A DNA stretch of 64,000 nucleotides, taken from the NCBI GenBank assembly GCA_020629155.1, contig JAHDDW010000001.1, positions 220,454 to 284,453 on the forward strand, given 5' to 3'. Both the position numbers and the translations under genes were made by a program. This DNA is from Acidimicrobiales bacterium. Its GTDB lineage: Bacteria; Actinomycetota; Acidimicrobiia; Acidimicrobiales; SZUA-35. The notes under the pieces were generated by a model that had not been told where the DNA came from, ran no database searches, and saw only the letters and a list, made by a program, of their open reading frames with translations. Shown here piece by piece: positions 5,429 to 59,280 of the stretch (positions are counted from its first letter, which is position 1; each line of letters begins with the position of its first letter).

Positions 5429-5560
5429 ATCGCTCCTCGTCCACACCCTCAGAATGGAACACATAGAATTGTTTTGTGCCACCCCTGTCGGACCGAGCTG
5501 GTGCTTTGTGAGGGCTTATCATAAATTGCACTTCCCACGAGAAACCAGAGATACCCTAGT

Positions 5561-5680
5561 GGGTATGTCTATTTTTTGCTTTTCTGCTGAACCGCTTTAC
5601 CCCAAAACCGCTAAAAGCTGCGTGCTAGCGCCCCGAGCGGAGCGGTAATACCGAGGGAATGTATAATTACTAGACATTCC
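5561..5680 (+). repeat. R1 intergenic repeat, copy a (full length, MITE/REP-like)
   Basis: Aligns over ~120 bp with copies at 7634, 11696 and 18073. Core is CCGCTAAAAGCTGCGTG...GAGCGGAGCGG. Terminal hairpin GGGAATGT/ACATTCC lies at 5655-5680. The 5' end GGGTATGTCTA is complementary to the 3' end TAGACATTCC. Confidence 0.85.
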
Positions 5681-5711
5681 TGGTATGAGGCGAAGATGAT
5701 GAAAGTTTGCT

Positions 5712-6491: not shown

Positions 6492-6509
6492 CAACCACTA
6501 GCTTTCGCC

Positions 6510-7181: not shown

Positions 7182-7614
7182 GGGAGTAACTCTAATCGCT
7201 CATTTCCTAGCTACTGCTTTAATGACAGGGATTATTTGGTTTGTGCAGCTAGTTCACTACCCACTTTTTTCACAAGTTGGTTCCGAAAAATTTGTGGCGT
7301 ATGAGAATGCCCATACCAAGCTGACCGCTATCACTGTAGGGCCGCCCATGCTGGTTGAAGGGCTAACCGCTTTAGCGCTTACGCCACTCCTTTTCCCTGA
7401 TTTACACTGGGCATTTTCGATAGCCAACCTGCTTCTTTTAGCTGCGACCCATGCAAGTACCGTTTTGCTTCAAGTGCCGCTGCACTCTTTGCTATCTAAA
7501 AAATATGATGAGAACAACATCAAAAGGCTTGTCATCACAAATAGTATCCGAACAGGGCTCTGGTCAGCGCGTTCGCTACTAATCGCAGCCGTTATCATCC
7601 AACAACTACCGTAA
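7180..7614 (+). CDS. Small polytopic membrane protein (possibly DUF1772/anthrone-oxygenase-like)
   Basis: 144 aa with about 4 hydrophobic helices. Family assignment is from memory only. Its ATG overlaps the divergent SDR start codon, so the true start may lie downstream. Confidence 0.5.
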   Translation: MGVTLIAHFLATALMTGIIWFVQLVHYPLFSQVGSEKFVAYENAHTKLTAITVGPPMLVEGLTALALTPLLFPDLHWAFSIANLLLLAATHASTVLLQVPLHSLLSKKYDENNIKRLVITNSIRTGLWSARSLLIAAVIIQQLP

Positions 7615-7633
7615 GGAACTATGAGCTCATCTA

Positions 7634-7754
7634 GGCTATCTCTATTTATTCTTTTTGTATCGAATCGTTTTACCAGAGAACCGCTAAAATCTGCGTGAAA
7701 ACGCCCCAAGCGGAGCGGAAATATCGAGGGCATCTACAATACTTAGAGATGCCC
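7634..7754 (+). repeat. R1 intergenic repeat, copy b (full length)
   Basis: GGCTATCTCTATTT...CCGCTAAAATCTGCGTG-GAAA hairpin-AAGCGGAGCGGAAATATCGAGG, followed by terminal hairpin GGGCATCT/AGATGCCC (7728-7754). Confidence 0.85.
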
Positions 7755-9194: not shown

Positions 9195-9200
9195 ATCCAA

Positions 9201-9264
9201 GCATCTCTAAAAATTGTAGATGCCATGGGTATTTCCGCTGCGCTTGTCGCGGTAGCACGCAGCT
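9201..9264 (-). repeat. R1 intergenic repeat, copy c (right half only, reverse orientation)
   Basis: Reverse complement reads AGCTGCGTG...AAGCGCAGCGGAAATAC..GGCATCT-loop-AGATGC. It abuts the stop of the VWA gene. Confidence 0.75.
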
Positions 9265-10691: not shown

Positions 10692-10733
10692 GGCTGCGCC
10701 TCCCCAAAGCTTTCTGCCTGGCGTTGCCTGACA

Positions 10734-11627
10734 TCACGTAATAACGAGTTCTTTTTGGACTTTCTCAATATCGCTGCGATATTTACAAAGCACCGTTAAC
10801 GTTTGGTCAAGCACTTCAGTGTCGATACTTTGTTTCCCTAATAGAAGTAGCGTCTGTGCCCAATCTAGCGTTTCGGAAATCGATGGGTCTTTCTTCAAAT
10901 CAAGCGCACGAATCGACGCCACAACAGCTGCGACCTGCTCTGCTAACTGCTGCGAAATTTCAGGCAGTTTCGTCTGAATAATCTGCTGCTCACGCAGTGC
11001 ATCCGGGTAGTCCATATGCAAGAAAAGACAGCGCCGTTTTAACGCTTCAGAAAGTTCACGGGTATTATTTGACGTCAGAAAAACCAGCGGGATCTGTTTC
11101 GCTTTAATCGTGCCTAGCTCAGGGATTGAGACTTGATAGTCTGACAAGATTTCAAGCAGTAACGCTTCGGTTTCTATTTCTACTCTATCGACCTCGTCGA
11201 TCAACAAAACAACAGGGTCTTGTGCAGTGATTGCTTCAAGCAATGGCCGTGAAAGCAGAAAATCTTCAGTAAAAATATCATCTTGCATCTGTTGCCATGT
11301 CGAAGAACCTGCATCAGCGGCCGCTTGTGCGTTTTCAACTTGAATACGAAGAAGCTGCTTTTTGTAGTTCCATTCATACAACGCTTTTGCTTCGTCGAGG
11401 CCTTCATAACATTGCAAACGCAATAAACGAGCGCCGAGCATCTCAGCCACAGACTTTGCTAACTGTGTTTTGCCTGTCCCTGCTGGGCCTTCAACCAAAA
11501 TTGGTTTGCCAAGACGATCGGCTAGAAACGACGCGCTAGCCGTTGCCTCATCGGCAAGATAGTCAACGTCAAGTAAACGTTTCTGAACGCTGCTAACTGA
11601 CTCAAATCTATGTTCCATCGAGGACAT
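10734..11627 (-). CDS. MoxR/CoxD-like AAA+ ATPase
   Basis: Walker A GPAGTGKT, Walker B LLIDEVDR, ~297 aa, followed by a VWA partner gene. Confidence 0.88.
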   Translation of the reverse strand: MSSMEHRFESVSSVQKRLLDVDYLADEATASASFLADRLGKPILVEGPAGTGKTQLAKSVAEMLGARLLRLQCYEGLDEAKALYEWNYKKQLLRIQVENAQAAADAGSSTWQQMQDDIFTEDFLLSRPLLEAITAQDPVVLLIDEVDRVEIETEALLLEILSDYQVSIPELGTIKAKQIPLVFLTSNNTRELSEALKRRCLFLHMDYPDALREQQIIQTKLPEISQQLAEQVAAVVASIRALDLKKDPSISETLDWAQTLLLLGKQSIDTEVLDQTLTVLCKYRSDIEKVQKELVIT

Positions 11628-11695
11628 CCTATCTTACTGAAAGCTGCATGCTAGCTCCTCGCGCGAGACGAGAATATTGAGCAACTCCCCTTTAT

Positions 11696-11817
11696 GGCTA
11701 TCTCTATTTGTTGCTTTTCTGCTGAATAGCTTGACCAGAAAACCGCATACCTGCTGCGTGCACACGTGCCAAGCGCAGCGGAAATACTGAGGGAATGTAG
11801 AATATAATGACATTCCC
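11696..11817 (+). repeat. R1 intergenic repeat, copy d (full length, more diverged)
   Basis: GGCTATCTCTATTTG...CTGCTGCGTG-CACACGTG-CCAAGCGCAGCGGAAATACTGAGG, followed by hairpin GGGAATGT/ACATTCCC (11791-11817). Directly abuts the ftsX stop codon. Confidence 0.8.
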
Positions 11818-12732
11818 TTACGCATCAAGATATTTAGAAACAGCAACACCCGCTGCCGAAGCGCCCAGCAGCGACCCGATAAGCAACATCGCAATAACAA
11901 TAAGCGTTTCTTGACCAAAGTTTAGGATAAAGGTAGAAAACTTAGGGATAGAAGTAAACATTTCATTAATAAAAAAGTTCACGAGGAAGATGCTGACGCC
12001 ACTAGCAACAGCGCCTAAGACACCTTGCAAAAGCCCTTCAAACATAAAAGGAATACGGACAAACCATTTCGTTGCTCCGACAAGTCGCATCACTTCAATT
12101 TCTTTACGACGAGCAAATACAGCTGTGCGAATCGAGTTATACATTAACAACGTTGCGGCAAAAGCCGCGACAACAGCGAAACCACCAGAAATCCAAGAAA
12201 TATAGGAAGCGATTCGAGTTTCTTCTTTAATCACATCAGTAGCGACAGATATCCTATCGATTCCTGGTGCACCACTCAGGGAATCTTTAACCTGATTAAC
12301 AATGCTAATATCAGGTTTGCTTGGTGTCACAACGAACGAGGTAGGAACAACGTCGGGGCTGATGAGAGCAATAATTTCAGGGGCGTCTTTGAAATAGCGT
12401 TGAACTTCTGAAAGCGTTTTGTCTCTGTCAACATAGTTGAGGTCTTTGATAAATGGATTAGCTTCCATTTTGGCTCGCAGGTCCTGTGTGATCTGCTCCA
12501 GCTCAGGATCGGTAAGAACAACTCCGTTGTCTTCAGTTTTCAACCAAACAACAAACGAAACCTCTGATTCAGCTTCTGCTTTAAGGTTCGCGGTGCCCCA
12601 AAAAACTGTTAACGCTATGCCAAGCAGTGTCAACGAAATCGCTACTGTCAAGACATTACCAATCGTCAAAGCAGGGTTGCGTAGAAAGTTTCTTGTTGTC
12701 TCTTTTGTTAGATAATCAATTCTAAGTGCCAT
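11818..12732 (-). CDS. ftsX: Cell-division ABC transporter permease FtsX
   Basis: Start is [19 protein letters not shown], 8 nt after the ftsE stop; the ORF-track N-terminal extension overlaps ftsE and is rejected. Has TM1, an extracellular domain and 3 C-terminal TMs. Confidence 0.9.
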
Positions 12733-12739
12733 TTCAACC

Positions 12740-13420
12740 TTACTCGTACACACCACGGTGCTGGTCGCGGACAATATTGCCATGTGAAAGTTCAATCACA
12801 CGCTTGCGCATAGTATCGACAATACCTCGATCGTGGGTAGCCATAACAACTGTTGTGCCTGTCTTATTAATACGGTCTAGAAGGCGCATAATGCCGATAG
12901 AAGTCTGCGGGTCAAGGTTACCTGTAGGCTCGTCTGCGAGCATTATAAGCGGCCTGTTCACAAACGCCCTTGCAATTGAGACACGCTGCTGCTCGCCACC
13001 TGAAAGCTGGTCTGGGTACTTATCCATTTTGTCTTCCAAACCGACAAGGCTACAAATTTGCGGAACTTGGCTAGCAATAACGCTCCGTTTGCGGCCAATA
13101 ACTTCCAAAGCAAAAGCGACATTCTCAGCAACTGTTTTTGTTTGCAGCAATTTAAAATCTTGAAAAATATTGCCAATATTACGTCGCAGCATTGGCACTT
13201 TCCAAGAAGACATTTGCCCGATATCTTTGCCAGCTACAAAAATACGGCCTCTATCTGGCTCTTCCTGTTTTGTCAAAAGTCGCAGCAACGTTGATTTGCC
13301 TGAGCCTGATGGACCAACAAGAAATACAAATTCGCCTTTGCCGATGTCGATATCGGCTTGCACTAATGCTGCACGAGCCTGCCCTTCATACCTTTTTGCA
13401 ACACCTTCAACTTTAATCAT
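12740..13420 (-). CDS. ftsE: Cell-division ABC transporter ATP-binding protein FtsE
   Basis: Walker [10 protein letters not shown], signature LSGGEQQR, Walker [11 protein letters not shown], 226 aa, upstream of ftsX. Confidence 0.95.
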
Positions 13421-13523
13421 TACCTTGCCTCAATCTAACAAACGGACATCGCTGCATGATCTTTTCACAGGCTATCGTAAGAAGTGGAAAGAACCATTCA
13501 TCTAACTAAAGGCGCACCGAGTC

Positions 13524-14129
13524 TCAAGATTCTTGCGGCTTCAAAACAAAAAAGCCGAGCCAGAGAACAATCAGCGCTGAAAGCGGTAGTGCTAACGCAC
13601 CTATCAAAGGCCAATTTTCGCTTTGTGTCACTTCAGAAGGTTCGACAGAAACCTTATCTATATTCGGCAAACCATTTAGGAAGTTACCAAAGTCTTGCAC
13701 TGACGCTTCATTTTGGGGAGTTACGACAAAAGAAGTGGGCGCCATGTTGGTGCTACCAATCAAATCAATGATCTCAGGCGATTCTACAAAATACTGTTCT
13801 AGTTGGGCTTGCGACTCATCTTTATCGATATAACGAAATTCTTTCACCAGCGGATTGTTGTCTAGCTGCGCAGCAATAGTACGTTGTATTTGATCTATCT
13901 GGTCATCGGTGAAGCTATCATCTTGTACCTTTCCATATGAAAATTCAGGTTCATTAGCTGGCAGCCAGACAACAGCGCTCCCCTGCTCAATTGTTTCTAC
14001 CTCATCAAGATTTTTTGCTAACACAAAGATGCCTACTGCGCTAAGAACAACAAACCACATGCCTAATGAGGCGTAGAGAAAAATATCTAGGCGCAGCCGT
14101 CTAGATTCGGTATTGTTTATAACATTCAT
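13524..14129 (-). CDS. FtsX-like protein retaining only TM1, the extracellular domain and one C-terminal TM (mini-FtsX paralogue)
   Basis: 201 aa. The central ~110 aa align with the FtsX extracellular domain encoded 1 kb away (e.g. NPLVKEFRYIDKD..YF..SPEIIDLI...APTSFVVTP vs [23 protein letters not shown]...VPTSFVVTP). Hydrophobic segments at both ends. Confidence 0.8.
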   Translation of the reverse strand: MNVINNTESRRLRLDIFLYASLGMWFVVLSAVGIFVLAKNLDEVETIEQGSAVVWLPANEPEFSYGKVQDDSFTDDQIDQIQRTIAAQLDNNPLVKEFRYIDKDESQAQLEQYFVESPEIIDLIGSTNMAPTSFVVTPQNEASVQDFGNFLNGLPNIDKVSVEPSEVTQSENWPLIGALALPLSALIVLWLGFFVLKPQES

Positions 14130-14180
14130 TTTGCCCGCCTACGTTTGGTTCTAACCTCTCAGGGTACAGGACGAGAGAGC

Positions 14181-15290
14181 TTACTCACCGTCAGACATAC
14201 GCCAGCGCAACCAAGACTCCATAAATGGGCGAACATCGCCGCCCAAAACGCCATCAGGATTGCCAGAGGTTTCCCCGCTGCGTTCGTCTTTCACCATCTG
14301 GTAGGGATGCATCACATAGGAACGAATCTGGCTCCCCCACTCAACCTTTTTCGATTCACCAGCTTCGTTTGCCAGTTCATCTTCACGTTTCTGCTGTTCT
14401 AACGCAAACAGTTTCGCTGTCAGCATTGTCATACAGCGCTCTTTGTTTTGATGCTGGCTACGTTCATCTTGACACGACACAACGATACCTGTTGGCATAT
14501 GCGTGACACGAACTGCCGAATCTGTTGTATTCACATGCTGGCCGCCAGCACCCGACGAACGAAACACATCGACCCGCAAATCTTTATCGTCAATATCGAC
14601 CTGCCCTACCTCTTCTTCTGGGATAACAGGCACCACTGCGAACGAAGCAAACGCTGTGTGACGCCTAGCCTGTGAATCAAACGGCGAGATACGTACGATG
14701 CGGTGAACCCCTCGCTCGGCTTGCAACAAGCCATAGGCATAGCGGCCACGAATAATAAACGAAGCAGATGAGATGCCGGCTTCATTACCTTTTTGCAGAT
14801 CGGTCTGCTCGAACTCAAACCCTTGTTGTGCTGCCCACCGTTCATACATATTTAGGAGCATCTCAGCCCAATCTTGTGCGTCAACACCACCAGCACCAGA
14901 GTTAAGGTCGCATGCCGCATCGCCTTGGTCATACTGGCCAGTAAATAACGCTCGTAATTCAAGCTCGGAAAACTCTGTCTTGGTAGCTTCAGCTAAAGCA
15001 GCAGCCTCAGCCTGTAATGACTCATCTTGCTCTTCGCCTGCTAGGTCATAGAGCACTTCGATATCGTCGATCTGTGACGCAAGCCGATCATAGAGATCAA
15101 GGTCGTCTTTTGTTGCAGCGAACTCTGTTTGCACCTTACGAGCACGATCGGCATCGTCCCACAAGTCTGGACGCCCCATCTCAGTTTCGAGCTGCGGCAA
15201 CCGTGAACGCAGCTCATCGATGCAAAGGTACTGTTTTGCTTCGGTGAGTTTTGCCGCTAATGGCGCAATCAAATCTTTCGTCTCTGCCAT
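14181..15290 (-). CDS. prfB: Peptide chain release factor 2
   Basis: Contains SPF, the GGQ motif (GAGGQHVN) and a typical RF2 N-terminus. The 369-aa ORF is uninterrupted, with no programmed +1 frameshift site. Confidence 0.97.
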   Translation of the reverse strand: MAETKDLIAPLAAKLTEAKQYLCIDELRSRLPQLETEMGRPDLWDDADRARKVQTEFAATKDDLDLYDRLASQIDDIEVLYDLAGEEQDESLQAEAAALAEATKTEFSELELRALFTGQYDQGDAACDLNSGAGGVDAQDWAEMLLNMYERWAAQQGFEFEQTDLQKGNEAGISSASFIIRGRYAYGLLQAERGVHRIVRISPFDSQARRHTAFASFAVVPVIPEEEVGQVDIDDKDLRVDVFRSSGAGGQHVNTTDSAVRVTHMPTGIVVSCQDERSQHQNKERCMTMLTAKLFALEQQKREDELANEAGESKKVEWGSQIRSYVMHPYQMVKDERSGETSGNPDGVLGGDVRPFMESWLRWRMSDGE

Positions 15291-17987
15291 CTATTTTCCG
15301 TGACACTGCTTAAACTTTTTACCACTATCGCATGGACATGGAGCGTTACGAGGTGTCTTATCCCACTCGCTTTTCACAACAGGAGCAGCTGTTTGCGGCT
15401 CAGCATCTTGCTCTTCGCTACGAACAGACGAACTTTCAGCTTTCTCTGCTGTTACTTCTGTTGTAACTGGAGCAGGTGTTTGCGCCGCTGGTGCTTCAAC
15501 TGTTTGCGTTTCTTCCTGTTGCACAACAACTTCGATACGCATTAGATAGCGAATAAAATCTATATTAAGCGATGTCAACATAGATTTAAACATCTCGAAA
15601 CCTTCACGCTGCCATTCAGTGAGTGGATCACGCTGCCCCATCGCACGCAGGTTAATACCTTCACGCAGCGAAGCCATATCGGTTAAGTGATCACGCCAAC
15701 GCTGATCGATCAGCTCAAGCATTACTTTGCGCTCCAACTTACGTATGATCTCTTCGCCTAACTCAGCTTCGCGTTCTTCATAACGAGTCTCGCCTTCTGC
15801 AACAATTGTTTCATGAATCTCTTTAGATTTATCTAGCTCTTCCAACTCTTCAAGTGCAATATCTGTTCTCCAGAAAGAAGAAAGTTCTGTATGTAACGCT
15901 TCAAGATCCCATGTGTCGTCTAACTCGTCCATGCAATGTGTCTGCACAAGATAGGTAGCAACATCATCAATAGCGGTGTGTGCTTCTTCGCTCAAATCGC
16001 CTTGTTCGAGAATTTGCATGCGACGTTTATAAATTATTTTGCGTTGCTGGTTATAGACCTCGTCGTATTTCAAAACATTCTTACGAGTTTCAGCGTTACG
16101 CTGCTCGACTGTTGTTTGCGCACGCTCCACCGATTTAGAAACCATTTTCGCTTCGATAGGCACATCGTCAGGCAACGCTTTACCCATGACCCAACTCATA
16201 GCTCCAGAAGCGAAAATACGCATCAAGTCATCTTCCAGCGACAGGAAGAACCGGCTCTCACCAGGATCGCCCTGACGCCCTGAACGACCACGCAACTGAT
16301 CATCAATGCGACGACTTTCGTGACGCTCTGTAGCTAAGACATAAAGACCACCGGCTTCGAGAACTGTTTTTTGGTTCTTCTCACAAATTGGCGACCAATA
16401 GGCTAAACGCTCATTATAAAACGCTTTCCCTTCGTCGCTTTCTTCGTCATAGCCTTCAGCGGCAACGTCAGACTCGGCAAGTTTTTCGGCATTGCCACCC
16501 AAAATAATGTCGACACCACGGCCAGCCATATTCGTCGCCACAGTGATAGCTCCAGGTTTACCAGCTTGGGCGACAATATCGGCCTCACGAAAGTTCGCTT
16601 TTGCGTTTAACACTTCGTGCGCTAAACCACGTTTTGTCATCAGCTCACTGAAAACCTCAGACTTCTCGACCGACGCTGTACCAACAAGCACAGGCTGGTC
16701 TTTAGCGACACGTTCTCTAATATCGTCGATCGCAGCCTCGAACTTCGCAAGTTCTGTTTTATAAATCATGTCGTCTTTATCGAGACGAGCTATCGGTTTG
16801 TTCGTAGGAATCTGAACAACTGAAAGATCATAGGTATTTTCAAGTTCAACCGCATCGGCTTGCGCCGTACCTGTCATGCCACCAAGTTTTTCATACATGC
16901 GGAAATAGTTCTGCAACGTTACGGTCGCAAGTGTCTGCTGCTCTTCCTTGATAGCAACACCCTCTTTAGCTTCAACAGCTTGATGCAGCCCATCTGACCA
17001 GCGACGACCATCTAAGACACGGCCTGTGAACTCGTCAACAATCTTAATTTCGCCGTTATCGATAAGATAATCTTTATCACGTTTAAAGAGCTCTTTCGCC
17101 CGTAACGACACATAGAGCTGGTGGACTAAATCGCCTTGCACACCATCATAAAGATTGCTGATATCTAACATCCTTTCGACGTTTGAAATACCTTCATCGG
17201 TGATGGCGACCACACGTTTTTCTTCATCAACTTCATAGTCAACATCGCGAGTAAGACGCGCGGCGACAGCAGAAAATTTTATATATAAATCAGCGGCACC
17301 TTGCATCTTGCCGCTGATAATCAAAGGCGTTCGAGCCTCGTCAATTAGAATAGAGTCAATTTCGTCCACAATGGCAAAACTATGACCACGTTGCGTCATT
17401 TTTTCTAGGCTGCTCGCCATATTGTCACGCAGATAATCAAACCCAAATTCGTTATTTGTGCCATAGGTTATATCACACGAATATTGCGCTTTTTTATGTG
17501 CTTTGTCGTTCTGCCCAGGCACAACCAAACCAGTAGTTAATCCATGCCAACCGTGAACTTGCCCCATCCACTCAGCGTCACGAGTCGCCAAATAGTCATT
17601 GACAGTAACAACATGCACGCCTTTGCCAGCAAGCGCGTTGAGATAGACAGGCAAAGTAGAAACAAGTGTTTTACCTTCACCTGTTTTCATTTCGGCGACT
17701 GAACCCCAATGCAAGGTAGCGCCACCCATAAGCTGCACGTCGTAGTGACGTTGCCCAATGACTCGGCTTGCTGTTTCGCGCACAACGGCAAACGCTTCGA
17801 TCATAATGTCGTCCAAAGAAGCGCCGTTAGCTAAACGCTCTTTAAATTCAACCGTTTTTGCTTTCAGCTCAGTATCGCTCAGGGCTTTAATTTCAGGCTC
17901 TAACGCATTAACTGGTTGAACGATTTTTTGTACTTGTTTTAGACGTTTACCGTCACCTATAGTTAGGATTTTATCGAGAAGCTTCAT
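15291..17987 (-). CDS. secA: Preprotein translocase ATPase SecA
   Basis: 898 aa with Walker A MKTGEGKT, DEVDSILIDEARTPLIISG and the C-terminal zinc motif CPCDSGKKFKQCHG. Its stop codon abuts the prfB start. Confidence 0.98.
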   Translation of the reverse strand: MKLLDKILTIGDGKRLKQVQKIVQPVNALEPEIKALSDTELKAKTVEFKERLANGASLDDIMIEAFAVVRETASRVIGQRHYDVQLMGGATLHWGSVAEMKTGEGKTLVSTLPVYLNALAGKGVHVVTVNDYLATRDAEWMGQVHGWHGLTTGLVVPGQNDKAHKKAQYSCDITYGTNNEFGFDYLRDNMASSLEKMTQRGHSFAIVDEIDSILIDEARTPLIISGKMQGAADLYIKFSAVAARLTRDVDYEVDEEKRVVAITDEGISNVERMLDISNLYDGVQGDLVHQLYVSLRAKELFKRDKDYLIDNGEIKIVDEFTGRVLDGRRWSDGLHQAVEAKEGVAIKEEQQTLATVTLQNYFRMYEKLGGMTGTAQADAVELENTYDLSVVQIPTNKPIARLDKDDMIYKTELAKFEAAIDDIRERVAKDQPVLVGTASVEKSEVFSELMTKRGLAHEVLNAKANFREADIVAQAGKPGAITVATNMAGRGVDIILGGNAEKLAESDVAAEGYDEESDEGKAFYNERLAYWSPICEKNQKTVLEAGGLYVLATERHESRRIDDQLRGRSGRQGDPGESRFFLSLEDDLMRIFASGAMSWVMGKALPDDVPIEAKMVSKSVERAQTTVEQRNAETRKNVLKYDEVYNQQRKIIYKRRMQILEQGDLSEEAHTAIDDVATYLVQTHCMDELDDTWDLEALHTELSSFWRTDIALEELEELDKSKEIHETIVAEGETRYEEREAELGEEIIRKLERKVMLELIDQRWRDHLTDMASLREGINLRAMGQRDPLTEWQREGFEMFKSMLTSLNIDFIRYLMRIEVVVQQEETQTVEAPAAQTPAPVTTEVTAEKAESSSVRSEEQDAEPQTAAPVVKSEWDKTPRNAPCPCDSGKKFKQCHGK

Positions 17988-18072
17988 GACGCTAACAGTC
18001 TAACCCTTCAAATCGTCAGCCACCTCGAAAAAATATATCTCTACACTACTTTCACCATCTCTTTAACTTTAG

Positions 18073-18193
18073 ACTGCCTCTATTTATTTGTTTTGTATCA
18101 AATCGCTTTACCAGAAAACCGCTAAAATCTGCGTGGAAGCATCCACCGAGCGGAGCGGAAATATCGAGGCCATCTATACTAAATAGAGATACC
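18073..18193 (+). repeat. R1 intergenic repeat, copy e (full length)
   Basis: CCTCTATTTATTTG...CCGCTAAAATCTGCGTG-GAAGCATCCAC-CGAGCGGAGCGGAAATATCGAGG...TAAATAGAGATACCC. Termini CTCTATTTA/TAAATAGAG are complementary. Confidence 0.85.
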
Positions 18194-18278
18194 CAATAGG
18201 TAGTGTTTCAATCACACTCCAAAAAGCTGGCCAAGAGCGCAACCACCACGCTACCGCTTAGAATCACTCATAGTACCT

Positions 18279-36053: not shown

Positions 36054-37349
36054 TTAGCTTAACATGCCAGCGTCAGCACGAATAAGCTCTATCCAGGTTC
36101 GACCAGGAGTCACTTTAATTGGCTTTGCGTCTGCTGTCGTGATCGTTGCGACATGGGCAAGCGTCGGCCTGGTCCAAATCCCTTCAACCCGTTTTCCGTC
36201 GCTAAACACCGTCGCTTTACCTGAGCCTACAAAGATAAACTCTGGCACCGTAGCACCTGACGAATCGACCATACCTGTCGCCATTTCTCTCGCCTCTATC
36301 ACAACCACATTTGCAGCTGCTACTTGTTCACCTGCTGTCATGTGGCTTGATCCGCCTTGCGTGCGCTTATAGGCACTGCCGTCCCATTGCCAGCCAACAC
36401 GGTTTGCTCGATAGCTCACCGTCAAAGAATCATCAGCGACACCTTGCGAAGCTTCCCCTGCGCCACGGTAATAGAATTGCGGCGGTGGTGGCCCGCCAGA
36501 GGCAGAAGCCCAATGCGGTGCTGTGTCAGTGAAAAGATTAGACGGCGCGCGACGTGAACGGTCACGCCAATACCCAGACGAGGTGCCAGCGTTACGATTT
36601 TGCACCGTCGGCTGTTGACGAAGCAGCGTATCAGTTACTGCGTTAGCACCTGAATACATAAGCAGCGGAGAACCGAACCCGTTGATGATGCCGATATCAG
36701 TCGTGCGCCCCGAACGGACAGGCCCAACGATCGACGAGGTGCTGTGATACACCGCAGCGAGACGAGTAACACCCCCTTCGACTTCTTCTTCAACAACAAT
36801 ATCAGCTGCGTTTAAACCTGTTTGTGGACGAGCTGGGCGGCTGTTATCTATTTTGACAATAGCTGCTGGACGGTTCGGCACCTGACCAGCAAGACCAGTA
36901 AGCGGCAAAATGTTGCTACCCACGCTAGGTGGTGTTGCGATAGCACCAGCTATCACTTCATTACGCCCGATAATACCGAGAAAACCTTTATAGATCGACG
37001 TGTCGGCTCCCCCACCGCCACTGCGGGTGACAACAGGTGCCCCGCCGCTACCTGATGTAGTTTTTGATCCTTGTTGCTGTCCTGCTGTTGCGGTTGTTTT
37101 CGCGCTTGCTGTGCCCCCAACAGTGCTTCCGACCACCGAGGTTGCCACCTTTTTCTTCGATGTTGTCGATTCTTTCTCGGCGAACGCTAGCTCTTCGGGC
37201 TCAGCTGACGTGCTGCTTTGCGCTGTTATAGCTGCGTCTTGTGTTGTGGTGGCGTCTTTATCGCCGCTACCGATGACCGCTACTACGCCGATTGCGAGCA
37301 GAAGCACGCCTGGAAGCAGCAACCATTTCTGATCTTTTTTTGCTAACAT
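36054..37349 (-). CDS. DUF3048 domain-containing secreted protein (paralogue 1)
   Basis: N-terminal TM/signal, Ser/Thr/Gly-rich linker, then LTGL...RPAAIVKIDNS.PARPQTGLNAADIVVEEEVEGGVTRLAAV...GPVRSGRTTD. Confidence 0.75.
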   Translation of the reverse strand: MLAKKDQKWLLLPGVLLLAIGVVAVIGSGDKDATTTQDAAITAQSSTSAEPEELAFAEKESTTSKKKVATSVVGSTVGGTASAKTTATAGQQQGSKTTSGSGGAPVVTRSGGGGADTSIYKGFLGIIGRNEVIAGAIATPPSVGSNILPLTGLAGQVPNRPAAIVKIDNSRPARPQTGLNAADIVVEEEVEGGVTRLAAVYHSTSSIVGPVRSGRTTDIGIINGFGSPLLMYSGANAVTDTLLRQQPTVQNRNAGTSSGYWRDRSRRAPSNLFTDTAPHWASASGGPPPPQFYYRGAGEASQGVADDSLTVSYRANRVGWQWDGSAYKRTQGGSSHMTAGEQVAAANVVVIEAREMATGMVDSSGATVPEFIFVGSGKATVFSDGKRVEGIWTRPTLAHVATITTADAKPIKVTPGRTWIELIRADAGMLS

Positions 37350-37384: not shown

Positions 37385-38569
37385 TTACTGCGTTACTTGC
37401 AAAAGGTCTGATGAGGCGTCGATGAGTTGTATCCAGGTGCGTCCTGGTGTGAGCTCTATCACATCACCTTCGCTTGTTGTGAATGTGGCGACGCTTGTTA
37501 GCGATGGTTTTGTCCACACACCGTCGATTTGTTTACCTTGTGTGAAGATCGTGGCTTTGCCGCTGCCGACATACACAAACTCTGGCACAGCGCCACCGCT
37601 TGCGTCGACCATGCCCGTGTCAACCGATTCGGCTTCTATCACAACAACATTTTCGGCTGCTACTTGTTCGCCGTCTACAAGCGTGTGAGGTGCACCATAT
37701 TGTGAACGCTGCCATGTTTCGCCGCTCCACGTCCACGTCGGTTTCGATCGATAGCCGATACTAAACTCTTTCGCCTCACTGCCTACACTGGTGCTATCGC
37801 CATAAGCGAAATGCGCTGGAGGAGCTTCACCTGTGGCTGATGCCCAATGCGGTGCGGTATCGGTAAACAGGTTCGACGGTGCTTTGCGGTCATCGGCGCG
37901 CCAATAGCCAGATGATGTTCCAACGTTACGGTTTTGGAAGTTCGTTTGTTTACGCAAATACAACTCGGTTATATCATTTGCGCCTGAATACAGAAACAGC
38001 GGCGTGCCAAATGAACTAGCTAACGCAATGTCGGTGGTTCGTCCAGAGCGGACAGGACCAACAATCGACGAGGTGCTGTGAAATACTGCTGCGAAACGGG
38101 TTACTCCCCCTTCGACTTCTTCTTCGATCACTATGTCTGCGGCGTTTAAACCATCGTGTGGTTGTGCTGGTTTGCCGTTATCGATTTTTATTACAGCTGC
38201 CGCCCTATCAGGGCTGTCACCTTTTAAACCTGTGAGCGGAAACGTGCCTGGTTCGGTTGCAGGTGGTTCAGCGACGGCATCGACAAGTGCATCGTTCGGG
38301 TCAAGTTTGCCGATCTTGCCTTTATAAATGTTGTCTGGGTCAGCTCCTTGGCCGCCTAGAACGGTAGTCACAGGTGGCAGACCGCTGCCGTCTGTCGTAG
38401 CCGTTTTCTCACCGTCGCTGCTGACGGCTTGGCTCGTTGAATCATCTGTTTTTTCAACAGCAACGCCGTCTTCTTGTGTCGCTGTTGATGCTTCTTTATC
38501 GTCTCCGCCGCTACAAGCGCTGAGCAGAAATATGAGCGATGCCGCACAAACGGCAGATTTTTTGATCAT
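37385..38569 (-). CDS. DUF3048 domain-containing lipoprotein (paralogue 2)
   Basis: Lipobox LLSAC. Same conserved blocks as the neighbouring gene (LTGL...AAVIKIDNGKPAQPHDGLNAADIVIEEEVEGGVTRFAAV...GPVRSGRTTD). Confidence 0.75.
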   Translation of the reverse strand: MIKKSAVCAASLIFLLSACSGGDDKEASTATQEDGVAVEKTDDSTSQAVSSDGEKTATTDGSGLPPVTTVLGGQGADPDNIYKGKIGKLDPNDALVDAVAEPPATEPGTFPLTGLKGDSPDRAAAVIKIDNGKPAQPHDGLNAADIVIEEEVEGGVTRFAAVFHSTSSIVGPVRSGRTTDIALASSFGTPLFLYSGANDITELYLRKQTNFQNRNVGTSSGYWRADDRKAPSNLFTDTAPHWASATGEAPPAHFAYGDSTSVGSEAKEFSIGYRSKPTWTWSGETWQRSQYGAPHTLVDGEQVAAENVVVIEAESVDTGMVDASGGAVPEFVYVGSGKATIFTQGKQIDGVWTKPSLTSVATFTTSEGDVIELTPGRTWIQLIDASSDLLQVTQ

Positions 38570-43157: not shown

Positions 43158-43349
43158 AACTTCCTCCAGGTTGAACTTTAACGCTACAGTCGCCTTACTA
43201 AAGACACCACTAGCAACAAATCAAAACCCTCTGAATGCTCCTAGATGGTTTATTCCAAGGTGTTTGTGTATTCTAGGTTATTCAAGATGTAGTAAAAACA
43301 ACTTTTGTCGATTTCCTCACACCCCGATCCTCTCATCCCCATTCGATCC

Positions 43350-43615
43350 CGTCATCCCCAACTCGATTGGGGATCTCCTTGGCCAGATTCCCAGTCGTAG
43401 CTGAGAATGACATGAACGCAACTCGAACTCGTCATCCCCAACTTGATTGGGGATCTCCTTGGCCAGATTCCCAGTCGTAGCTGAGAATGACATGAACGCA
43501 ACTCGAACTCGTCATCCCCAACTTGATTGGGGATCTCCTTGGCCAGATTCCCAGTCGTAGCTGGGAATGACGTGACTAACTGGGCAAGACGTGGACGCAG
43601 CTGGAAATGACGTGG
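43350..43615 (+). repeat. R2 tandem array: three 80-bp-period units plus degenerate 21-nt subrepeat tail
   Basis: GTCATCCCCA recurs at 43351, 43431 and 43511. Unit is CGTCATCCCCAACTTGATTGGGGATCTCCTTGGCCAGATTCCCAGTCGTAGCTG(A/G)GAATGAC. The inter-unit segments are identical (CATGAACGCAACTCGAACT), so this is not a CRISPR. Tail: GCTGGGAATGACGTG / CTGGGCAAGACGTGG / GCTGGAAATGACGTGG. Confidence 0.9.
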
Positions 43616-54552: not shown

Positions 54553-55122
54553 GTGGCTTCAAATATGGATGATTCTCCCAACGGCGTGGTCGGTAAGACT
54601 CTTTTTGATGAGGCAGCTATCGCTGAACGAGTCGCCGAGCTAGGCACAGAAATTTCTAAAGAGTATCAAGACCAGGAGCTGCTTGTCATAGCGGTGCTTC
54701 GAGGCAGCTTTATCTTCGCAGCCGATCTGATTCGCCATATAACCTGTGAACTTGAAATCGACTTTCTAGCTGTTTCTTCCTACGGTTCAGATACGACAAG
54801 CACAGGCGTTGTGAAGATTCTGAAAGATATTAACCAAGAGATTCAAGGGAAAGAAGTGCTTATCGTCGAAGATATTATTGACTCTGGTACCACACTTAAC
54901 CACCTTGTCGATTATTTAGCGTTGAAACAACCAGCGTCCATCAAAACGTGTTCGCTGCTGCTTCGCCAAGCTGGACAAGTTAACGAACCACCACTTGATT
55001 ATTATGGTTTCAAGATAACAACTGAAGACTTTGTCATCGGCTATGGTTTAGATGTAGCACAGAAATTCCGCAACCTACCCTACATAGCCATCTATGAGCC
55101 AGACGCTTCCGACGAACAATGA
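54553..55122 (+). CDS. hpt: Hypoxanthine phosphoribosyltransferase
   Basis: PRPP motif VLIVEDIIDSGTTL, FIVGYGLD-type motif (FVIGYGLD), ~185 aa. Start is either GTG 54553 or ATG 54565. Confidence 0.9.
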   Translation: MASNMDDSPNGVVGKTLFDEAAIAERVAELGTEISKEYQDQELLVIAVLRGSFIFAADLIRHITCELEIDFLAVSSYGSDTTSTGVVKILKDINQEIQGKEVLIVEDIIDSGTTLNHLVDYLALKQPASIKTCSLLLRQAGQVNEPPLDYYGFKITTEDFVIGYGLDVAQKFRNLPYIAIYEPDASDEQ

Positions 55123-56737
55123 ACTTTTAGCTGAAACAGCACGGCTCGAAAACATTATCGCAGCACATAACCGACATATAGAATCTGCTCGCCGTCTCGC
55201 GACACTGCTAGCGAACGAAGCCGCCGAGCTGACCGCTGACGGGATCCGCGATCTTGTCGACGAAGATGCCGAAGTTGACGCAGCGGTGCAGGCCGCAATT
55301 GTGCGCCAGGCTTCTGATCGAGCCATGCATGCACTGCGTCGTGTGCGTGAGCTTGAAGACCTTGGCAATGCGTTAGCGTTCGGTTTCACCACCGCTGATG
55401 GGCAACGCAACTATGTTGGGCGACATAGCGTTATAGAAGACGACGATGTGTATCTGATTGATTGGCGCTCTGACGCTGCGGTGCCTTTTTATCGTGCAAC
55501 ACCATCTGAATCGCTTGGCGTTAGTCATCGAAGGCATTTGCTTTATGAAACACAAGCACAGAAACAGCAGCTCGTTGACTATTCAGACGAAATTTTTAGT
55601 GACACAGCCGAACTATCTGAGGTGGAACTTCGCGGCGAAGCGGCACTGCTCCACGCTATAGATTCACCCACCAAAGCGCATATGAAATCGGTTGTTGCCA
55701 CAATCCAAAACGAGCAAGACCAGGTGATTCGCGCGCCTGCAAAAGGGGCGCTTGTTGTGCAAGGCGGCCCTGGCACAGGCAAAACTGTTGTGGCGCTTCA
55801 CCGGGCCGCCTATTTGCTTTATAACTATCGCCATGATTTGCAAGACAACGGTGTGCTGGTTGTTGGGCCTACGTCGCAGTTTTTGACCTATGTCGCCAAA
55901 GTGTTGCCGTCTCTCGGCGAAACAGGCGTTGTCTCGTCAACGGTTGAACGGCTTTACTCTGGGGTTTTACTTGGCCATGACGAAACGCATCGCAGCAGCG
56001 AAGTGAAAGGCCGTCTCGCTATGGCGTCGCTGTTAGCAAACGCTATAAAGCTTCGCCAACGCACACCTCAAACTAGCCTTGTGGTGTGGTACGGGTCAAC
56101 GAAAGTGACAATCGAAACCGAAACCCTGCAATCTCTTTTTGCGGTAGCGCAGCGATACAACGCCTATAACGAAGGGGCTGCCGCTTTTGCAAGACTGCTA
56201 GTTGAAACCTTAGTTGGGCAAGCCTATAGCCCCTCGTTTGACACAGTGCAAGACGTGCGAACAAGTTTCCAACAAGCACAAGAGGTGAAGCATTTTCTTC
56301 TTAAGCACTGGCCGACGCTAACGCCCGAACAAGCGTTGAATGACCTTTTCGGGTCGACTGCTATGCTTCGAATCGCTGCGAAAGAACTGCCTTTTAACGA
56401 TGGAGACCTTGCGAGCCTGCATCGGATGCGCAGCAGCGAAAAACAACTCGGCGATAGACGCTGGTCGAATGCCGATGCTGCGCTGCTTGACGAGTTGTTG
56501 TATCTAATCGAGGGCATGCTCGGCAATCAACAAAGCGAGCGATACAACAGACGTGACGCTCTTAACGAGTTTGAACTGGCTGCGTTGCAACAAGACGAAG
56601 GTGTTGACTTGAGCCATTATGAAACCGACGATGCCACGATCGACCCGATAGAACCAACAAGTTTTTGGCGGTCAGCCGACAAAAATCTTGGTCTTTTCCC
56701 CGTAATGTATGACCAAGCAGAAACCGAGGTTGACTAA
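55094..56737 (+). CDS. helD: HelD-like (UvrD/helicase IV family) protein, N-terminal part
   Basis: Coiled-coil N-terminal arm, YVGRHSV..DDVYLIDWRSDAAVPFYRAT, Walker A GGPGTGKT. Ends at a TAA that overlaps an ATG (TAATG). Confidence 0.75.
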   Translation: MSQTLPTNNELLAETARLENIIAAHNRHIESARRLATLLANEAAELTADGIRDLVDEDAEVDAAVQAAIVRQASDRAMHALRRVRELEDLGNALAFGFTTADGQRNYVGRHSVIEDDDVYLIDWRSDAAVPFYRATPSESLGVSHRRHLLYETQAQKQQLVDYSDEIFSDTAELSEVELRGEAALLHAIDSPTKAHMKSVVATIQNEQDQVIRAPAKGALVVQGGPGTGKTVVALHRAAYLLYNYRHDLQDNGVLVVGPTSQFLTYVAKVLPSLGETGVVSSTVERLYSGVLLGHDETHRSSEVKGRLAMASLLANAIKLRQRTPQTSLVVWYGSTKVTIETETLQSLFAVAQRYNAYNEGAAAFARLLVETLVGQAYSPSFDTVQDVRTSFQQAQEVKHFLLKHWPTLTPEQALNDLFGSTAMLRIAAKELPFNDGDLASLHRMRSSEKQLGDRRWSNADAALLDELLYLIEGMLGNQQSERYNRRDALNEFELAALQQDEGVDLSHYETDDATIDPIEPTSFWRSADKNLGLFPVMYDQAETEVD

Positions 56738-56755
56738 TGGCGCAAGATCGTATTA

Positions 56756-56824
56756 GGGGATGTTCTTTTAGCATACATCCCCTTACTATTTCCGCTCCGC
56801 TCAGGGCATTAGCACGCAGCTTTT
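56756..56824 (-). repeat. R1 repeat, copy f (right half, reverse orientation) inside split helD
   Basis: Reverse complement reads AAAAGCTGCGTG..CTGAGCGGAGCGGAAATAG..GGGGATGT-loop-ACATCCCC. Bracketed by ATGGCGCAAGATCGTAT at 56737-56753 and 56862-56878. Confidence 0.8.
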
Positions 56825-56861
56825 GGTGGTTCGCCGATCAAGTAGAAATGGAGGTCAGCCG

Positions 56862-57653
56862 ATGGCGCAAGATCGTATAACAGGGTTAGAAACGTCTGAA
56901 GATTATATCTCTGACGAAGCTTTTATTCGTGAAGCAGAGTTGCAGCTAGAACAAGTCGACGTGCGCAGCGACGAGAGCGCCACGGTTTCGCAGCTTGTCT
57001 CCAAGCAACGACACTGGCGTTATGGCCATGTGATTGTTGACGAGGCGCAAGATTTATCTGCTATGGCGTGGCGCATGGTGGCGCGTAGAGCTGAAGCAGG
57101 TTCTATGACTATCGTTGGCGATGTGGCGCAACGCACCGCTAGCGACCAAAAAACATGGGATGATATTTTAGGTGATGTCTCCCCCGACTTTTCTTACCGT
57201 GAGCTGACCATTAACTATCGCTCGCCTCGTGAGGTGAATGAAGTTGCGACCACTATTTTGAAGAAGCTTGCACCCTCGCTGCAGCCTTCGCAAGCTATCC
57301 GTTCGTCAAACATTCCTGTCGAGTTCATCGCTGTCAGGAAAGAAGAGCAAGCGCAGCATGTCAAAAAGCTCACCTCGGCGTCATTTGACGGCAGAGAAAT
57401 TGACGGCAAAGCGGTTGGTAGCAGAGCAGTTGTGATAAGCGCCGATGGGAAAGCAGGCACCGATTGCGGAGCTGAAACATTCACACCACAACAAGTGAAA
57501 GGGTTAGAGTTTGACGATGTTATCATCGTCGAGCCGCAACACGTTCTCGACCTGCCTGGCGGCCTTAGCCTGCTCTATGTTGCCATCACCAGGGCCACAT
57601 CAAAGCTAACTATAATTCATTCAGGCGATCTGCCGGATGTTTTGAAGTACTAG
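56862..57653 (+). CDS. helD: HelD-like helicase, C-terminal part
   Basis: ATG 56862 preceded by GGAGG (56850-56854). Motif II VIVDEAQDLS, TIVGDVAQRT, INYRSP, GLEFDDVIIVEP, YVAITRAT. Confidence 0.75.
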   Translation: MAQDRITGLETSEDYISDEAFIREAELQLEQVDVRSDESATVSQLVSKQRHWRYGHVIVDEAQDLSAMAWRMVARRAEAGSMTIVGDVAQRTASDQKTWDDILGDVSPDFSYRELTINYRSPREVNEVATTILKKLAPSLQPSQAIRSSNIPVEFIAVRKEEQAQHVKKLTSASFDGREIDGKAVGSRAVVISADGKAGTDCGAETFTPQQVKGLEFDDVIIVEPQHVLDLPGGLSLLYVAITRATSKLTIIHSGDLPDVLKY

Positions 57654-58269: not shown

Positions 58270-58403
58270 CTTATCGTCACACGTGTTCTCAACAACAGCC
58301 CTTAAGAACGTTTTCTCGAATTTTGTTCATAACGGCGACGCTTATCGTCACATGTGACGATAAGCGCAGCCCTTAAGAACGTTTTTCCAAATTTCGTTCA
58401 TAA
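58270..58403. repeat. Two 63-bp direct repeat units (period 71 bp), the second containing a 24-bp perfect palindrome
   Basis: Units at 58270-58332 and 58341-58403 share CTTATCGTCACA..CAGCCCTTAAGAACGTTTT..GTTCATAA. The palindrome CTTATCGTCACATGTGACGATAAG is at 58341-58364. Confidence 0.85.
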
Positions 58404-58430
58404 GAAACACCTAGCTGCTAGGTTATTCCT

Positions 58431-59143
58431 ATGGAACCAGCAAGTTTTACCTCCGCCAAGCGTGGCCGAGTCATCAAATCTGTCGACGGCTACTGGGCGT
58501 TTCTATTTTCGTTCCTCCTCCGCCTCAAGAGATGCATGCGTGCCTTGATGATTTAGAAAAATTTTTCCACGACAGGTCTCTACCTCTTCTGATTCAACTA
58601 GCTATGGGACATTACCAATTTGAAGCGATTCACCCTTTTCTTGATGGCAACGGGCGTATTGGTAGGCTACTTATACCGTTTCTTCTTGTTGACCGAGGCG
58701 TTCTTTCACAACCGTTACTGTATCTGTCCGCATATTTTGAACGATACCGCAGTGACTATTACGATCATCTTTTAAGGATCAGCCAAACAGGAGACTTTGA
58801 ACTTTGGTTCAAGTTTTTTCTAACAGGCATCTGTGAACAAGCGAAAGACGCAGAAGAACGAACAGTTCGTTTAGTAGATCTTCAAACAGAGCTCAGAGAG
58901 ACGCTCTTGCAAGAAAATATGCCATCGAATGTTATCAAATTAGCAGAGCTGCTTTTTGCTACCCCTGTTTTAACAGTCAAGATGGTAGAGAAGTTGCTCG
59001 ATGTTTCTAACCCAACCGCCAGACGTGTTATTGACACGCTCACAACAAGAGGAACGCTTGAAGAAGCATCAAGCCGAAAACGCAACAGAGTTTTTCGAGC
59101 ACCTCAAATCTATGAGGCAGTCTACGGCGACATCGAAAACTAG
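58431..59143 (+). pseudogene. Fic-family protein gene, frameshifted and internally shortened
   Basis: The core ORF 58532-59143 has HPFLDGNGRIGR. Upstream ATG 58431 (MEPASFTSAKRGRVIKSVDGYWAF) joins it if one T is added to the T4 run at 58506-58509 (..AFLFFVPPPPQEMHACLDDLEKF..). The product would be ~237 aa, against the ~350-380 aa I recall as typical. Confidence 0.7.
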
Positions 59144-59169
59144 ATGGTTTTCCCAAGGTGCTTGTGTCC

Positions 59170-59280
59170 CGTCATCCCCAACTTGATTGGGGATCTCTCC
59201 TTGGTTAGATTCCCAGTCGTAGCTGGGAATGGCGTGGTCGTAGCTCGAAATGACGTGGACGTAGCTGGGAATGACACGTG
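59170..59280 (+). repeat. R2 repeat, single full unit with three 21-nt subrepeats
   Basis: CGTCATCCCCAACTTGATTGGGGATCTCTCCTTGGTTAGATTCCCAGTCGTAGCTGGGAATGGCG, then TCGTAGCTCGAAATGACGTGG and ACGTAGCTGGGAATGACACGTG. Lies between convergent gene ends. Confidence 0.85.

Follow-up and report, generated by a model that had tools for sequence, protein, structure and literature searches.

HelD and HelR proteins clear stalled RNA polymerase and, in actinobacteria, also displace rifampicin. We describe here a helD locus of an Acidimicrobiales bacterium that is present on a 64,000-nt stretch of contig JAHDDW010000001.1 (assembly GCA_020629155.1, positions 220,454 to 284,453; the whole stretch is referred to as the window, and all positions are counted from its first letter). 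The protein is encoded at this locus by two consecutive open reading frames (ORFs), helD-N (ORF1) and helD-C (ORF2), between which lies an insertion of 125 bp that carries a fragment of a local repeat, R1. We consider it very probable that the two genes encode a naturally split HelD/HelR-type RNA-polymerase-recycling ATPase of class II, that the split is the older event, and that the insertion of the R1 fragment, accompanied by a duplication of the helD-C start, came later.

Two consecutive genes encode the parts of a class II-like HelD protein

The two ORFs divide the known HelD domains between them. The NCBIfam HelR/HelD_MYCSM models place ORF1 at positions ~41-460 and ORF2 at 475/487-711, the alignments of ORF1 with the NCBIfam HelD/HelR models beginning at model positions 26-46; the Pfam UvrD-helicase N-terminal domain is split (positions 3-46 in ORF1, 202-250 in ORF2), and the UvrD_C and UvrD_C_2 domains are found in ORF2. 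When the ORFs were concatenated and compared by phmmer with the HelD protein of Mycobacterium smegmatis (Msm HelD; 6yxu_H), residues 68-429 aligned with 46-418 and residues 560-808 with 478-718 (E = 1e-92). Within this alignment, the secondary-channel arm of ORF1 (68-168) lies on Msm HelD 46-141, including the DWRS motif, the 1A domain with Walker A and the clamp-opening insertion are covered without a break through residue 418, and motif II (DEAQ) together with a complete 2A domain (6yxu_H 478-718) is present in ORF2. Both ORFs are intact and have kept all motifs. Together, judged by their sequence, they are a class II HelD/HelR-type ATPase. What the locus does not encode is a single chain of ~650-880 aa that reaches an NCBIfam cut-off; there are two genes instead, of 547 and 263 codons. 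Since the NCBIfam cut-offs are missed, we file the pair as a split-gene variant of the HelD family (class II-like) and do not rank it as an equivalog of either Msm HelD or HelR.

The split is shared by relatives that lack the insert

Nine related loci from different branches were looked up (L002, L003, L004/L005, and L013-L017). In all nine, an N-half gene is followed directly by a C-half gene (252-291 aa, UvrD_C-type domains), with neither a spacer nor a repeat between them; a spacer between the halves is thus a property of the window only. Stop and start codons overlap or abut in these relatives (by 4, 11, 14 or 8, 8, 4, 4, 8, and 0 nt), as they do in the upstream one of two copies of the junction sequence in the window (copy A; TAATG), where the working helD-C start now lies 125 nt downstream. 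All three relative frames occur, and most of the C-halves start with ATG or GTG after a Shine-Dalgarno (SD)-like purine run situated within the end of the N-half gene. The overlaps, the varied frames and the SD-like starts argue that these are two real cistrons, and neither the product of frameshift errors nor a conserved recoding site. Two individual loci deserve a remark. The halves of L017 (3654-3659) lie in one frame and are parted by TAA followed by ATG only. The DNA of L004 and L005 is identical at 4742-4755, yet the start calls differ (ATG 4742 versus 4748); the conserved MADDRL N-terminus favors the second.

The closest relatives resemble the window on both sides of the junction. Their C-halves start with MADDRL(T/A/V)GW, compared with MAQDRITG in the window, and their N-halves end in FPIMYDQAEGDT (...FPIMYDQAE...) ahead of the stop codon, compared with FPVMYDQAETEVD. 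Moreover, an hpt-like gene (PF00156) is positioned upstream of the split helD in the four closest loci (L002-L005) too; in the window, the last 29 nt of this gene already belong to helD-N. From the shared junction ends and the hpt-like gene upstream, we take copy A to be the unaltered ancestral junction. The last ~30 residues of helD-N (DPIEPTSFWRSADKNLGLFPVMYDQAE) are conserved in the closest split relatives P0034, P0042, and P0048, whereas the remaining forms, split or fused, have not kept them. A tail confined to this clade might serve for docking to HelD-C or the polymerase.

About 80 of the best 120 homologues of the concatenated protein are N-halves only (506-644 aa, 51-59% identity), one of which is labeled 'HelD family protein, partial' by its source, and the full-length homologues have 780-880 aa (44-50% identity). 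The sources that are named are metagenome-assembled genomes of Acidimicrobiia, Acidimicrobiales or Actinomycetota, and it is on these source names that the class assignment of the relatives rests. When ORF2 was searched with HMMER against 1.8 billion representatives, the top of the list was taken by stand-alone proteins 254-291 aa long, whose alignments begin at their first residues; 44 of the 146 representative sequences retrieved have at most 330 aa, and several of the short homologues begin with M(A/S)xDR(L/I)xG. In a rough neighbor-joining tree, the window protein groups with four split relatives. Collectively, these comparisons indicate that the split is old and widespread and that, across a large and diverse set of Acidimicrobiia, having two genes is the common state.

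The cut probably falls close to the tip of the primary-channel loop

The firm anchor for locating the cut is W52 of ORF2, the counterpart of Msm HelD W520, which stands directly ahead of GHV(I/V)VDEAQ. Further upstream, ORF2 residues ~13-20 (EDYISDEA) fall, with low posterior support, on Msm HelD 478-485 (EDLMDDED, including D482/D483). Helix alpha16 of Msm HelD (455-472) is found just ahead of the primary-channel loop, of which the part comprising residues 473-494 is wedged into the active site of the polymerase and brings D482/D483 to the catalytic Mg (Kouba et al., 2020; PMC7749160). The gene boundary is accordingly placed, within ~10 residues, near the alpha16/loop junction, an arrangement in which the free N-terminal end of HelD-C would carry the loop tip. 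Acidic residues are frequent on both sides of it: D or E occupies 15 of the final 58 positions of ORF1 and 12 of the initial 40 of ORF2.

A fused relative, P0002, locates the cut in the same region. BLASTP places ORF1 10-489 on P0002 25-506 (58% identity) and ORF2 24-261 on P0002 575-811; we used this mapping for the break instead of a 44-sequence MAFFT alignment, which scattered the terminal residues. In the AlphaFold2 model of P0002, residues 522-592 lack secondary structure and have a predicted local distance difference test score below 50, between domains that are predicted with confidence; the arm helices span residues 12-68 and 75-104. The best PDB matches of the model are Msm HelD structures (E = 2e-40), so that Msm HelD is the best solved-structure match by fold as well as by sequence. 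According to this model, the cut probably lies in an acidic, disordered segment. With 1A-1 located in one chain and 1A-2 and 2A in its partner, both chains should be needed for ATP hydrolysis.

An earlier note on this DNA, made from the letters and their translations, had assigned the arm and Walker A to ORF1 and motif II with the C-terminal lobe to ORF2, and had held that HelD consisted of two polypeptides before the insertion took place. The NCBIfam, Pfam and 6yxu_H alignments bear out the first of these claims, and the nine insert-free relatives, all split at overlapping or abutting codons, bear out the second. Its view of a two-gene HelD as unusual does not hold for the layout, which is common in Acidimicrobiia, but does hold for the 125-bp spacer, found only here; and the break whose exact position it wished to see mapped on orthologues can be located in the acidic primary-channel-loop region, to ~10 residues only.

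The junction contains an inverted R1 fragment and a second helD-C start

The 17-mer ATGGCGCAAGATCGTAT is present in just two copies in the whole window, at 56737-56753 and 56862-56878, both on the + strand; by our own arithmetic, a perfect 17-mer pair at most 300 nt apart is expected by chance ~1e-3 times per 64 kb. The first copy shares bases with the ORF1 stop (TAATG), an in-frame TGA at 56731-56733 shuts the frame of the ATG at 56737 on its upstream side, and GGAGG at 56850-56854 is positioned 7 nt ahead of the ATG at 56862. The repeat search revealed that the duplication goes further upstream in an imperfect form, giving copies A and A' of 43 nt with 79% identity (Table 1). The extra 26 nt are identical at 17 positions in register, a level that a scan of the whole window found at just 2 other positions of ~128,000.

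Compared with the ancestral junction, the window has 125 additional nt behind base 17 of helD-C; these comprise, in this order, TA, the hairpin of R1 (56755-56783), its core as far as ~56833, the 26-nt leader of A', and the repeated 17-mer. The 108 nt between the 17-mer copies hold, in reverse orientation, the right-hand part of R1 (~80 nt, comprising the core and the terminal hairpin); the ~60 nt that form the left part of a full-length R1 are missing. The empty site, i.e., the junction without the insert, is predicted to read GTTGACTAATGGCGCAAGATCGTATAACAGGG.

The 43-nt duplication looks mosaic. The first 13 nt of the A' leader match copy A at 11 of 13 positions, and its last 14 nt (TGGAGGTCAGCCGA) match helD-N 56666-56679 at 13 of 14, the best match in the window. 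Among the changes from A to A' are the conversion of CGAGG into GGAGG and the loss of the TGA and TAA stops. Neutral drift after a clean 43-bp duplication is insufficient to explain this pattern, given that 17 nt are perfect, 9 of 26 are changed, and 14 of the 26 nt match another helD-N segment. An origin of the leader from the left half of R1 was also considered; it matches the R1 consensus at 13 of 16 positions by eye and individual copies less well, and it is not separable from an origin in helD. A one-step event of the template-switching type would fit the A' pattern, as would later selection on the leader.

With respect to the junction, the perfect 17-bp direct repeat, the TAATG overlap, the TGA and the GGAGG reported in the earlier note are all confirmed in the sequence, and its recognition of the right part of R1, reversed, between the copies agrees with both the pattern search and the alignment. 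It had further held that the start codon was duplicated while a ribosome-binding site was kept or recreated; this is supported, copy A being the ancestral junction and A' having GGAGG-N7-ATG. Its picture of a clean 17-bp bracket needs revision, since the perfect 17-mer is only part of a 43-nt imperfect and apparently mosaic duplication. Orthologues do show two ORFs without any repeat, which the note had named as one half of what would speak against its reading, but the insert is truly homologous to R1, and the claim stands.

R1 is a multi-copy repeat confined to this lineage in the collections searched

R1 is a multi-copy, mostly intergenic repeat of ~130 nt at full length, with six copies in the 64 kb of the window (Table 1). 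The pattern CTGCGTG-N10-14-AGCGNAGCGGNAATA matches all six and was found 0 times in 100 shuffles. In the four full-length copies available, the ends GGCTATCTCTA and TAGAGATGCCC are imperfectly inverted. The terminal hairpin is conserved, with compensatory changes between copies, and that of the helD fragment is retained in the centroid fold. Direct repeats of at least 9 nt (7-nt seed) were found around none of the other five copies, the helD copy alone being flanked; hence, the repeat at helD is not a routine footprint of R1. Rfam searches of the window at the gathering threshold, and of one R1 copy and the insert at E up to 10, returned noise only and no R1 family. Scans with the R1 pattern of GTDB-representative genomes and of JGI metagenome contigs gave 7 and 6 single matches, respectively, in unrelated taxa, none of which extends past the ~38-nt span of the pattern.

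Several features of the R1 copies may be recorded. Each of the six has a TANNNT hexamer of the −10 type in the hairpin loop (TATAAT, TACAAT, TAGAAT/TATAAT, TATACT, TACAAT, and TATGCT), and three of the four full-length copies are positioned 20-90 nt upstream of a + strand gene (fpg/nei-like, photolyase-related, and speD-like). R1 might carry an outward-facing promoter, which in helD would then point antisense into helD-N. Five of the six copies lie within 13 kb (5500-18200), and the sixth, in helD, is 38 kb off; the Pfam matches of the genes in the R1-dense 13 kb include two of the DNA-repair/photolyase type and, among the others, VWA/AAA, ftsX, secA, and speD-like genes.

Table 1. Positions of the helD locus features and of the R1 copies in the window.
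Feature	Position	Strand	Description and basis
hpt-like phosphoribosyltransferase gene	54553..55122	+	ORF list; PF00156 on the same gene in L001
helD-N (ORF1), 547 aa	55094..56737	+	Secondary-channel arm, 1A-1 with Walker A, clamp-opening domain, alpha16-like helix, acidic C-terminal tail
Walker A, GGPGTGKT, helD-N residues 224-231	55763..55786	+	Invariant in the alignment of relatives
helD-N conserved tail, DPIEPTSFWRSADKNLGLFPVMYDQAETEVD	56642..56734	+	Common to the closest split relatives (alignment with P0034, P0042, P0048; junction listing)
Repeat copy A	56711..56753	+	Last 8 helD-N codons, TAATG, first 17 nt of the original helD-C start (56737-56753); repeat search, comparison of orthologous junctions
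47-codon ORF	56737..56880	+	From the old coupled ATG through the R1 fragment to 19 nt past the helD-C ATG; called as a gene in L001
Inverted R1 fragment	56754..56835	−	Core and terminal hairpin (56755-56783); alignment, pattern match 56787-56819 (−), inverted-repeat pairs
Repeat copy A'	56836..56878	+	Diverged 26-nt leader with Shine-Dalgarno GGAGG (56850-56854), then the perfect 17-mer as the working helD-C start
helD-C (ORF2), 263 aa	56862..57653	+	Acidic N-terminal peptide (equivalent of the primary-channel-loop tip), 1A-2, 2A domain
Motif II, VDEAQD, helD-C residues 59-64	57036-57053	+	Sequence
Full-length R1	5559..5690	+	Repeat search, alignment, pattern
Full-length R1	7632-7754	+	Repeat search, alignment, pattern
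Left-truncated R1	9190-9264	−	Truncation point differs from that of the helD fragment
Full-length R1	11694-11817	+	Repeat search, alignment, pattern
Full-length R1	18070-18194	+	Repeat search, alignment, pattern

Alternative explanations for the split and for the insertion

That the R1 fragment is located precisely where the two halves meet, and that the HelD proteins described in the literature are all single chains, could be taken to mean that the insertion broke a single helD gene and left a pseudogene or two recently disrupted halves. Removal of the insert, however, yields TAATG and two ORFs in different frames and not one ORF, the break in the nine insert-free relatives falls in the same region, and both ORFs are intact with all motifs; we regard such a disruption as extremely improbable. 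Synthesis of one polypeptide through programmed frameshifting or stop-codon readthrough draws some support from the stop and start codons that overlap or abut in the relatives, and from L017, whose ORFs share a frame with one stop between them. But the C-half is found in frames +0, +1, and +2 with overlaps of 0-14 nt and no conserved geometry, most C-halves have their own ATG or GTG with an SD-like motif and, in the closest clade, a conserved N-terminus, and in the window the halves are 125 nt apart with stops in the helD-N frame. The frame variation among the relatives led us to reject recoding of helD-N and helD-C, a very improbable reading. Finally, the source is probably a metagenome-assembled genome, in which repeats can mis-assemble, so that the insert or the split might be an artefact of sequencing or assembly. 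A 17-bp repeat is shorter than typical assembly k-mers. The separately built Logan assembly of a public run (L001, two samples) is 100% identical over 8,102 bp, insert and 47-codon ORF included, and the split recurs across many independent assemblies; this identity makes an artefact unlikely to the point that we give it next to no credence.

As to the insertion itself, the repeat of 17 bp (or 43 bp) could be a target-site duplication left by transposition of an R1 element akin to miniature inverted-repeat transposable elements (MITEs). R1 is indeed multi-copy, its ends resemble inverted repeats, its terminal hairpin is conserved and shows compensatory changes, and the repeat abuts the R1 homology directly on both sides. 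Against this stand the lack of flanking direct repeats at the other five copies, the absence from the helD copy of the left end that a transposase would need, and the diverged A' leader with its partial match to another helD-N segment; moreover, 17-43 bp is far above the usual length of target duplications in bacteria. We consider transposition rather unlikely. One could also suppose that the insertion uncoupled or silenced helD-C through polarity of the R1 hairpin, and that the system is being lost or helD-N acts alone: a stable 9-bp hairpin followed by a T-rich stretch is present just past the helD-N stop, and structures of Msm complexes show the N-terminal domain of HelD staying bound to the polymerase alone. 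Yet helD-C is intact over 263 codons behind a canonical GGAGG-N7-ATG, and the changes in A' strengthen the SD sequence and show no decay. A consensus scan of 56400-57100 detected no terminator and no sigma-70-type promoter, the loop of the R1 hairpin being too long for the terminator rule. Silencing of helD-C is, in our judgment, improbable.

A proposal for the origin of the insertion and the present working of the locus

An ancient split followed by a later insertion is thus the reading that we prefer. The large subunit would contribute the secondary-channel arm, the half of 1A with Walker A, the clamp-opening domain and the acidic tail, and the small subunit the acidic equivalent of the primary-channel-loop tip, the second half of 1A (motif II) and 2A. 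After the ancient split, and in the window lineage alone, 125 bp would have been inserted 17 nt into helD-C, composed of an inverted, left-truncated copy of the local R1 and a re-copied stretch of the junction. The origin was most likely independent of a transposase, through template switching or illegitimate recombination. Copy A would still terminate helD-N, and copy A' would provide helD-C with a new ATG and a stronger GGAGG at ideal spacing; the insertion was presumably retained because the duplication rescued the helD-C start. Both genes are presumably still co-expressed from the hpt-helD operon, the simplest reading being that co-transcription continues and that translation initiates independently at the new helD-C start.

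A speculative addition is that coupling is kept through an RNA helix between the helD-N end and the helD-C start, through the 47-codon ORF, or through both. A helix formed by 56706-56735 and 56853-56879 is predicted with a pairing probability of at least 0.9 in windows of 200-300 nt. The pairing of A' with the helD-N end has an energy of −22.8 kcal/mol, compared with −18.3 for the unmutated copy, and 1.3% of random variants with 9 substitutions pair as well as A'. Such a helix might loop out the R1 fragment and mask the helD-C start until ribosomes finish helD-N. Likewise, the 47-codon ORF might serve as a ribosome bridge across the spacer; we rejected it as a selected feature, its frame being open in 18% of shuffles and its product lacking a Pfam match.

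At its widest, the proposal would make the two-subunit HelD a working heterodimeric motor that is widespread in Acidimicrobiia. The acidic peptide invading the active site would be the free N-terminus of a small subunit instead of a closed loop, the subunits could bind and leave the polymerase separately, and the R1 insertion would loosen translational coupling and replace it by structure-gated initiation, in which ribosomes finishing helD-N unmask the helD-C ribosome-binding site. We advance this wide version tentatively, as a possibility that we think is less probable than its opposite.

Several observations weigh against the preferred reading or parts of it. The scores of the two ORFs, 255.7 and 167.3 bits, compare with equivalog cut-offs of 750-1100, and the summed scores fall short too. 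The protein search found no close relative of 60-99% identity as a source of an empty-site allele. The neighbor-joining tree mixes split and fused forms and gives neither the number nor the direction of fissions and fusions. At the junction, copy A has kept 17 perfect nt although these are now non-coding, next to 26 nt at 9 of which A' differs. The predicted helix is weaker in 400-nt windows and is replaced by other pairings in 600-nt windows, and the 201-nt region folds no better than shuffled sequences (z = −0.24). The low posterior for the ORF2 N-terminus on the Msm loop limits the placement of the break, as stated above. Lastly, formation of a heterodimer and its activity are predictions from conservation, the argument for function being the persistence of both halves across ~50% sequence divergence.

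Comparison with known HelD proteins and with short mobile repeats

The domain order of Msm HelD (class II; PDB 6YXU, 6YYS, 6Z11, 8Q3I) is that of the window protein: the arm leads to 1A-1 and its Walker A, then follow the clamp-opening insertion, the acidic primary-channel loop (of which the window protein has a putative counterpart), 1A-2 with DEAQ, and finally 2A. In contrast, the window protein is divided into two genes, cut near the alpha16/loop boundary (Msm ~466-473); its N-half has an extra acidic tail of ~60 aa; its identity to Msm HelD is only ~30-40%; and, instead of a closed loop, its loop tip should form a free N-terminal peptide. The HelR proteins (Mycobacterium abscessus, Streptomyces rifamycin resistance; NF041254, NF041258) are the best NCBIfam models for the halves (E = 7.9e-76 and 4.3e-49) and share the class II architecture, but the window scores are far under the cut-offs of 750 and 1100 bits. 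The nearest single-chain forms are fused HelD proteins of Acidimicrobiia (P0002, 824 aa; P0004, 833 aa), which are 49-58% identical to the window halves over their full length and have the same acidic disordered linker at the cut point of the window protein, but are single ORFs. Since fused forms are mixed with split ones in the tree, fission or re-fusion appears to have occurred more than once.

The literature on HelD treats single-chain proteins, in the Msm structures (PMC7749160, PMC11464796), in a survey of the classes (PMC8655204), and in a review of HelD and HelR (PMC10719064). These four open-access articles make no mention of a split, truncated or two-gene HelD. The survey dropped sequences of <600 aa as partial (PMC8655204), a filter by which split helD genes would have been hidden. 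Within this open-access literature, split HelD is a novel form of the known HelD family, and the R1 insertion with its start duplication is a lineage-specific curiosity.

R1 resembles MITEs, repetitive extragenic palindromic (REP) sequences, enterobacterial repetitive intergenic consensus (ERIC) sequences and Correia-type elements in being short, multi-copy and mostly intergenic, with inverted-repeat-like ends, a hairpin, and one copy between cistrons. It differs from them in that its other copies have no target duplications, no Rfam family matches it, and none was found outside the lineage in the two large collections; the helD copy is, in addition, truncated and accompanied by a 43-nt mosaic duplication.

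Other repeats in the window

A second repeat family, unrelated to R1, consists of three tandem 80-nt units (85-100% identical; 43343-43582) and a related partial copy at 59167-59279, just downstream of a Fic-domain gene (58532-59143). The gap between an HD-domain gene and the Fic gene contains an inverted repeat with abutting 52-nt arms of 73% complementarity (58301-58352 / 58353-58404), overlapped by a 63-nt direct repeat (58270-58332 / 58341-58403); the repeats at 58270-58404 are possibly a regulatory or operator region. Two repeat pairs ~1,335 nt apart in 36292-36866 and 37632-38200 (77% over 173 nt and 88% over 41 nt) point to paralogous genes in tandem.

Implications for the HelD family

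The finding is of use for work on the HelD mechanism and for annotation. As for the latter, an entire class of HelD genes escapes surveys that discard 'partial' sequences of <600 aa. The R1 insertion offers a small, clean case of an operon junction that survived an insertion through duplication of a start site. Current models of HelD are built on a single chain that tethers the primary-channel loop at its two ends. A natural split just before the loop tip would mean that the N-terminal tether of the loop is not needed and that the ATPase site could be built from two chains. The split form may thereby provide a ready design for dividing Msm HelD, so that clamp opening, invasion of the active site, and ATP hydrolysis could be separated from one another.

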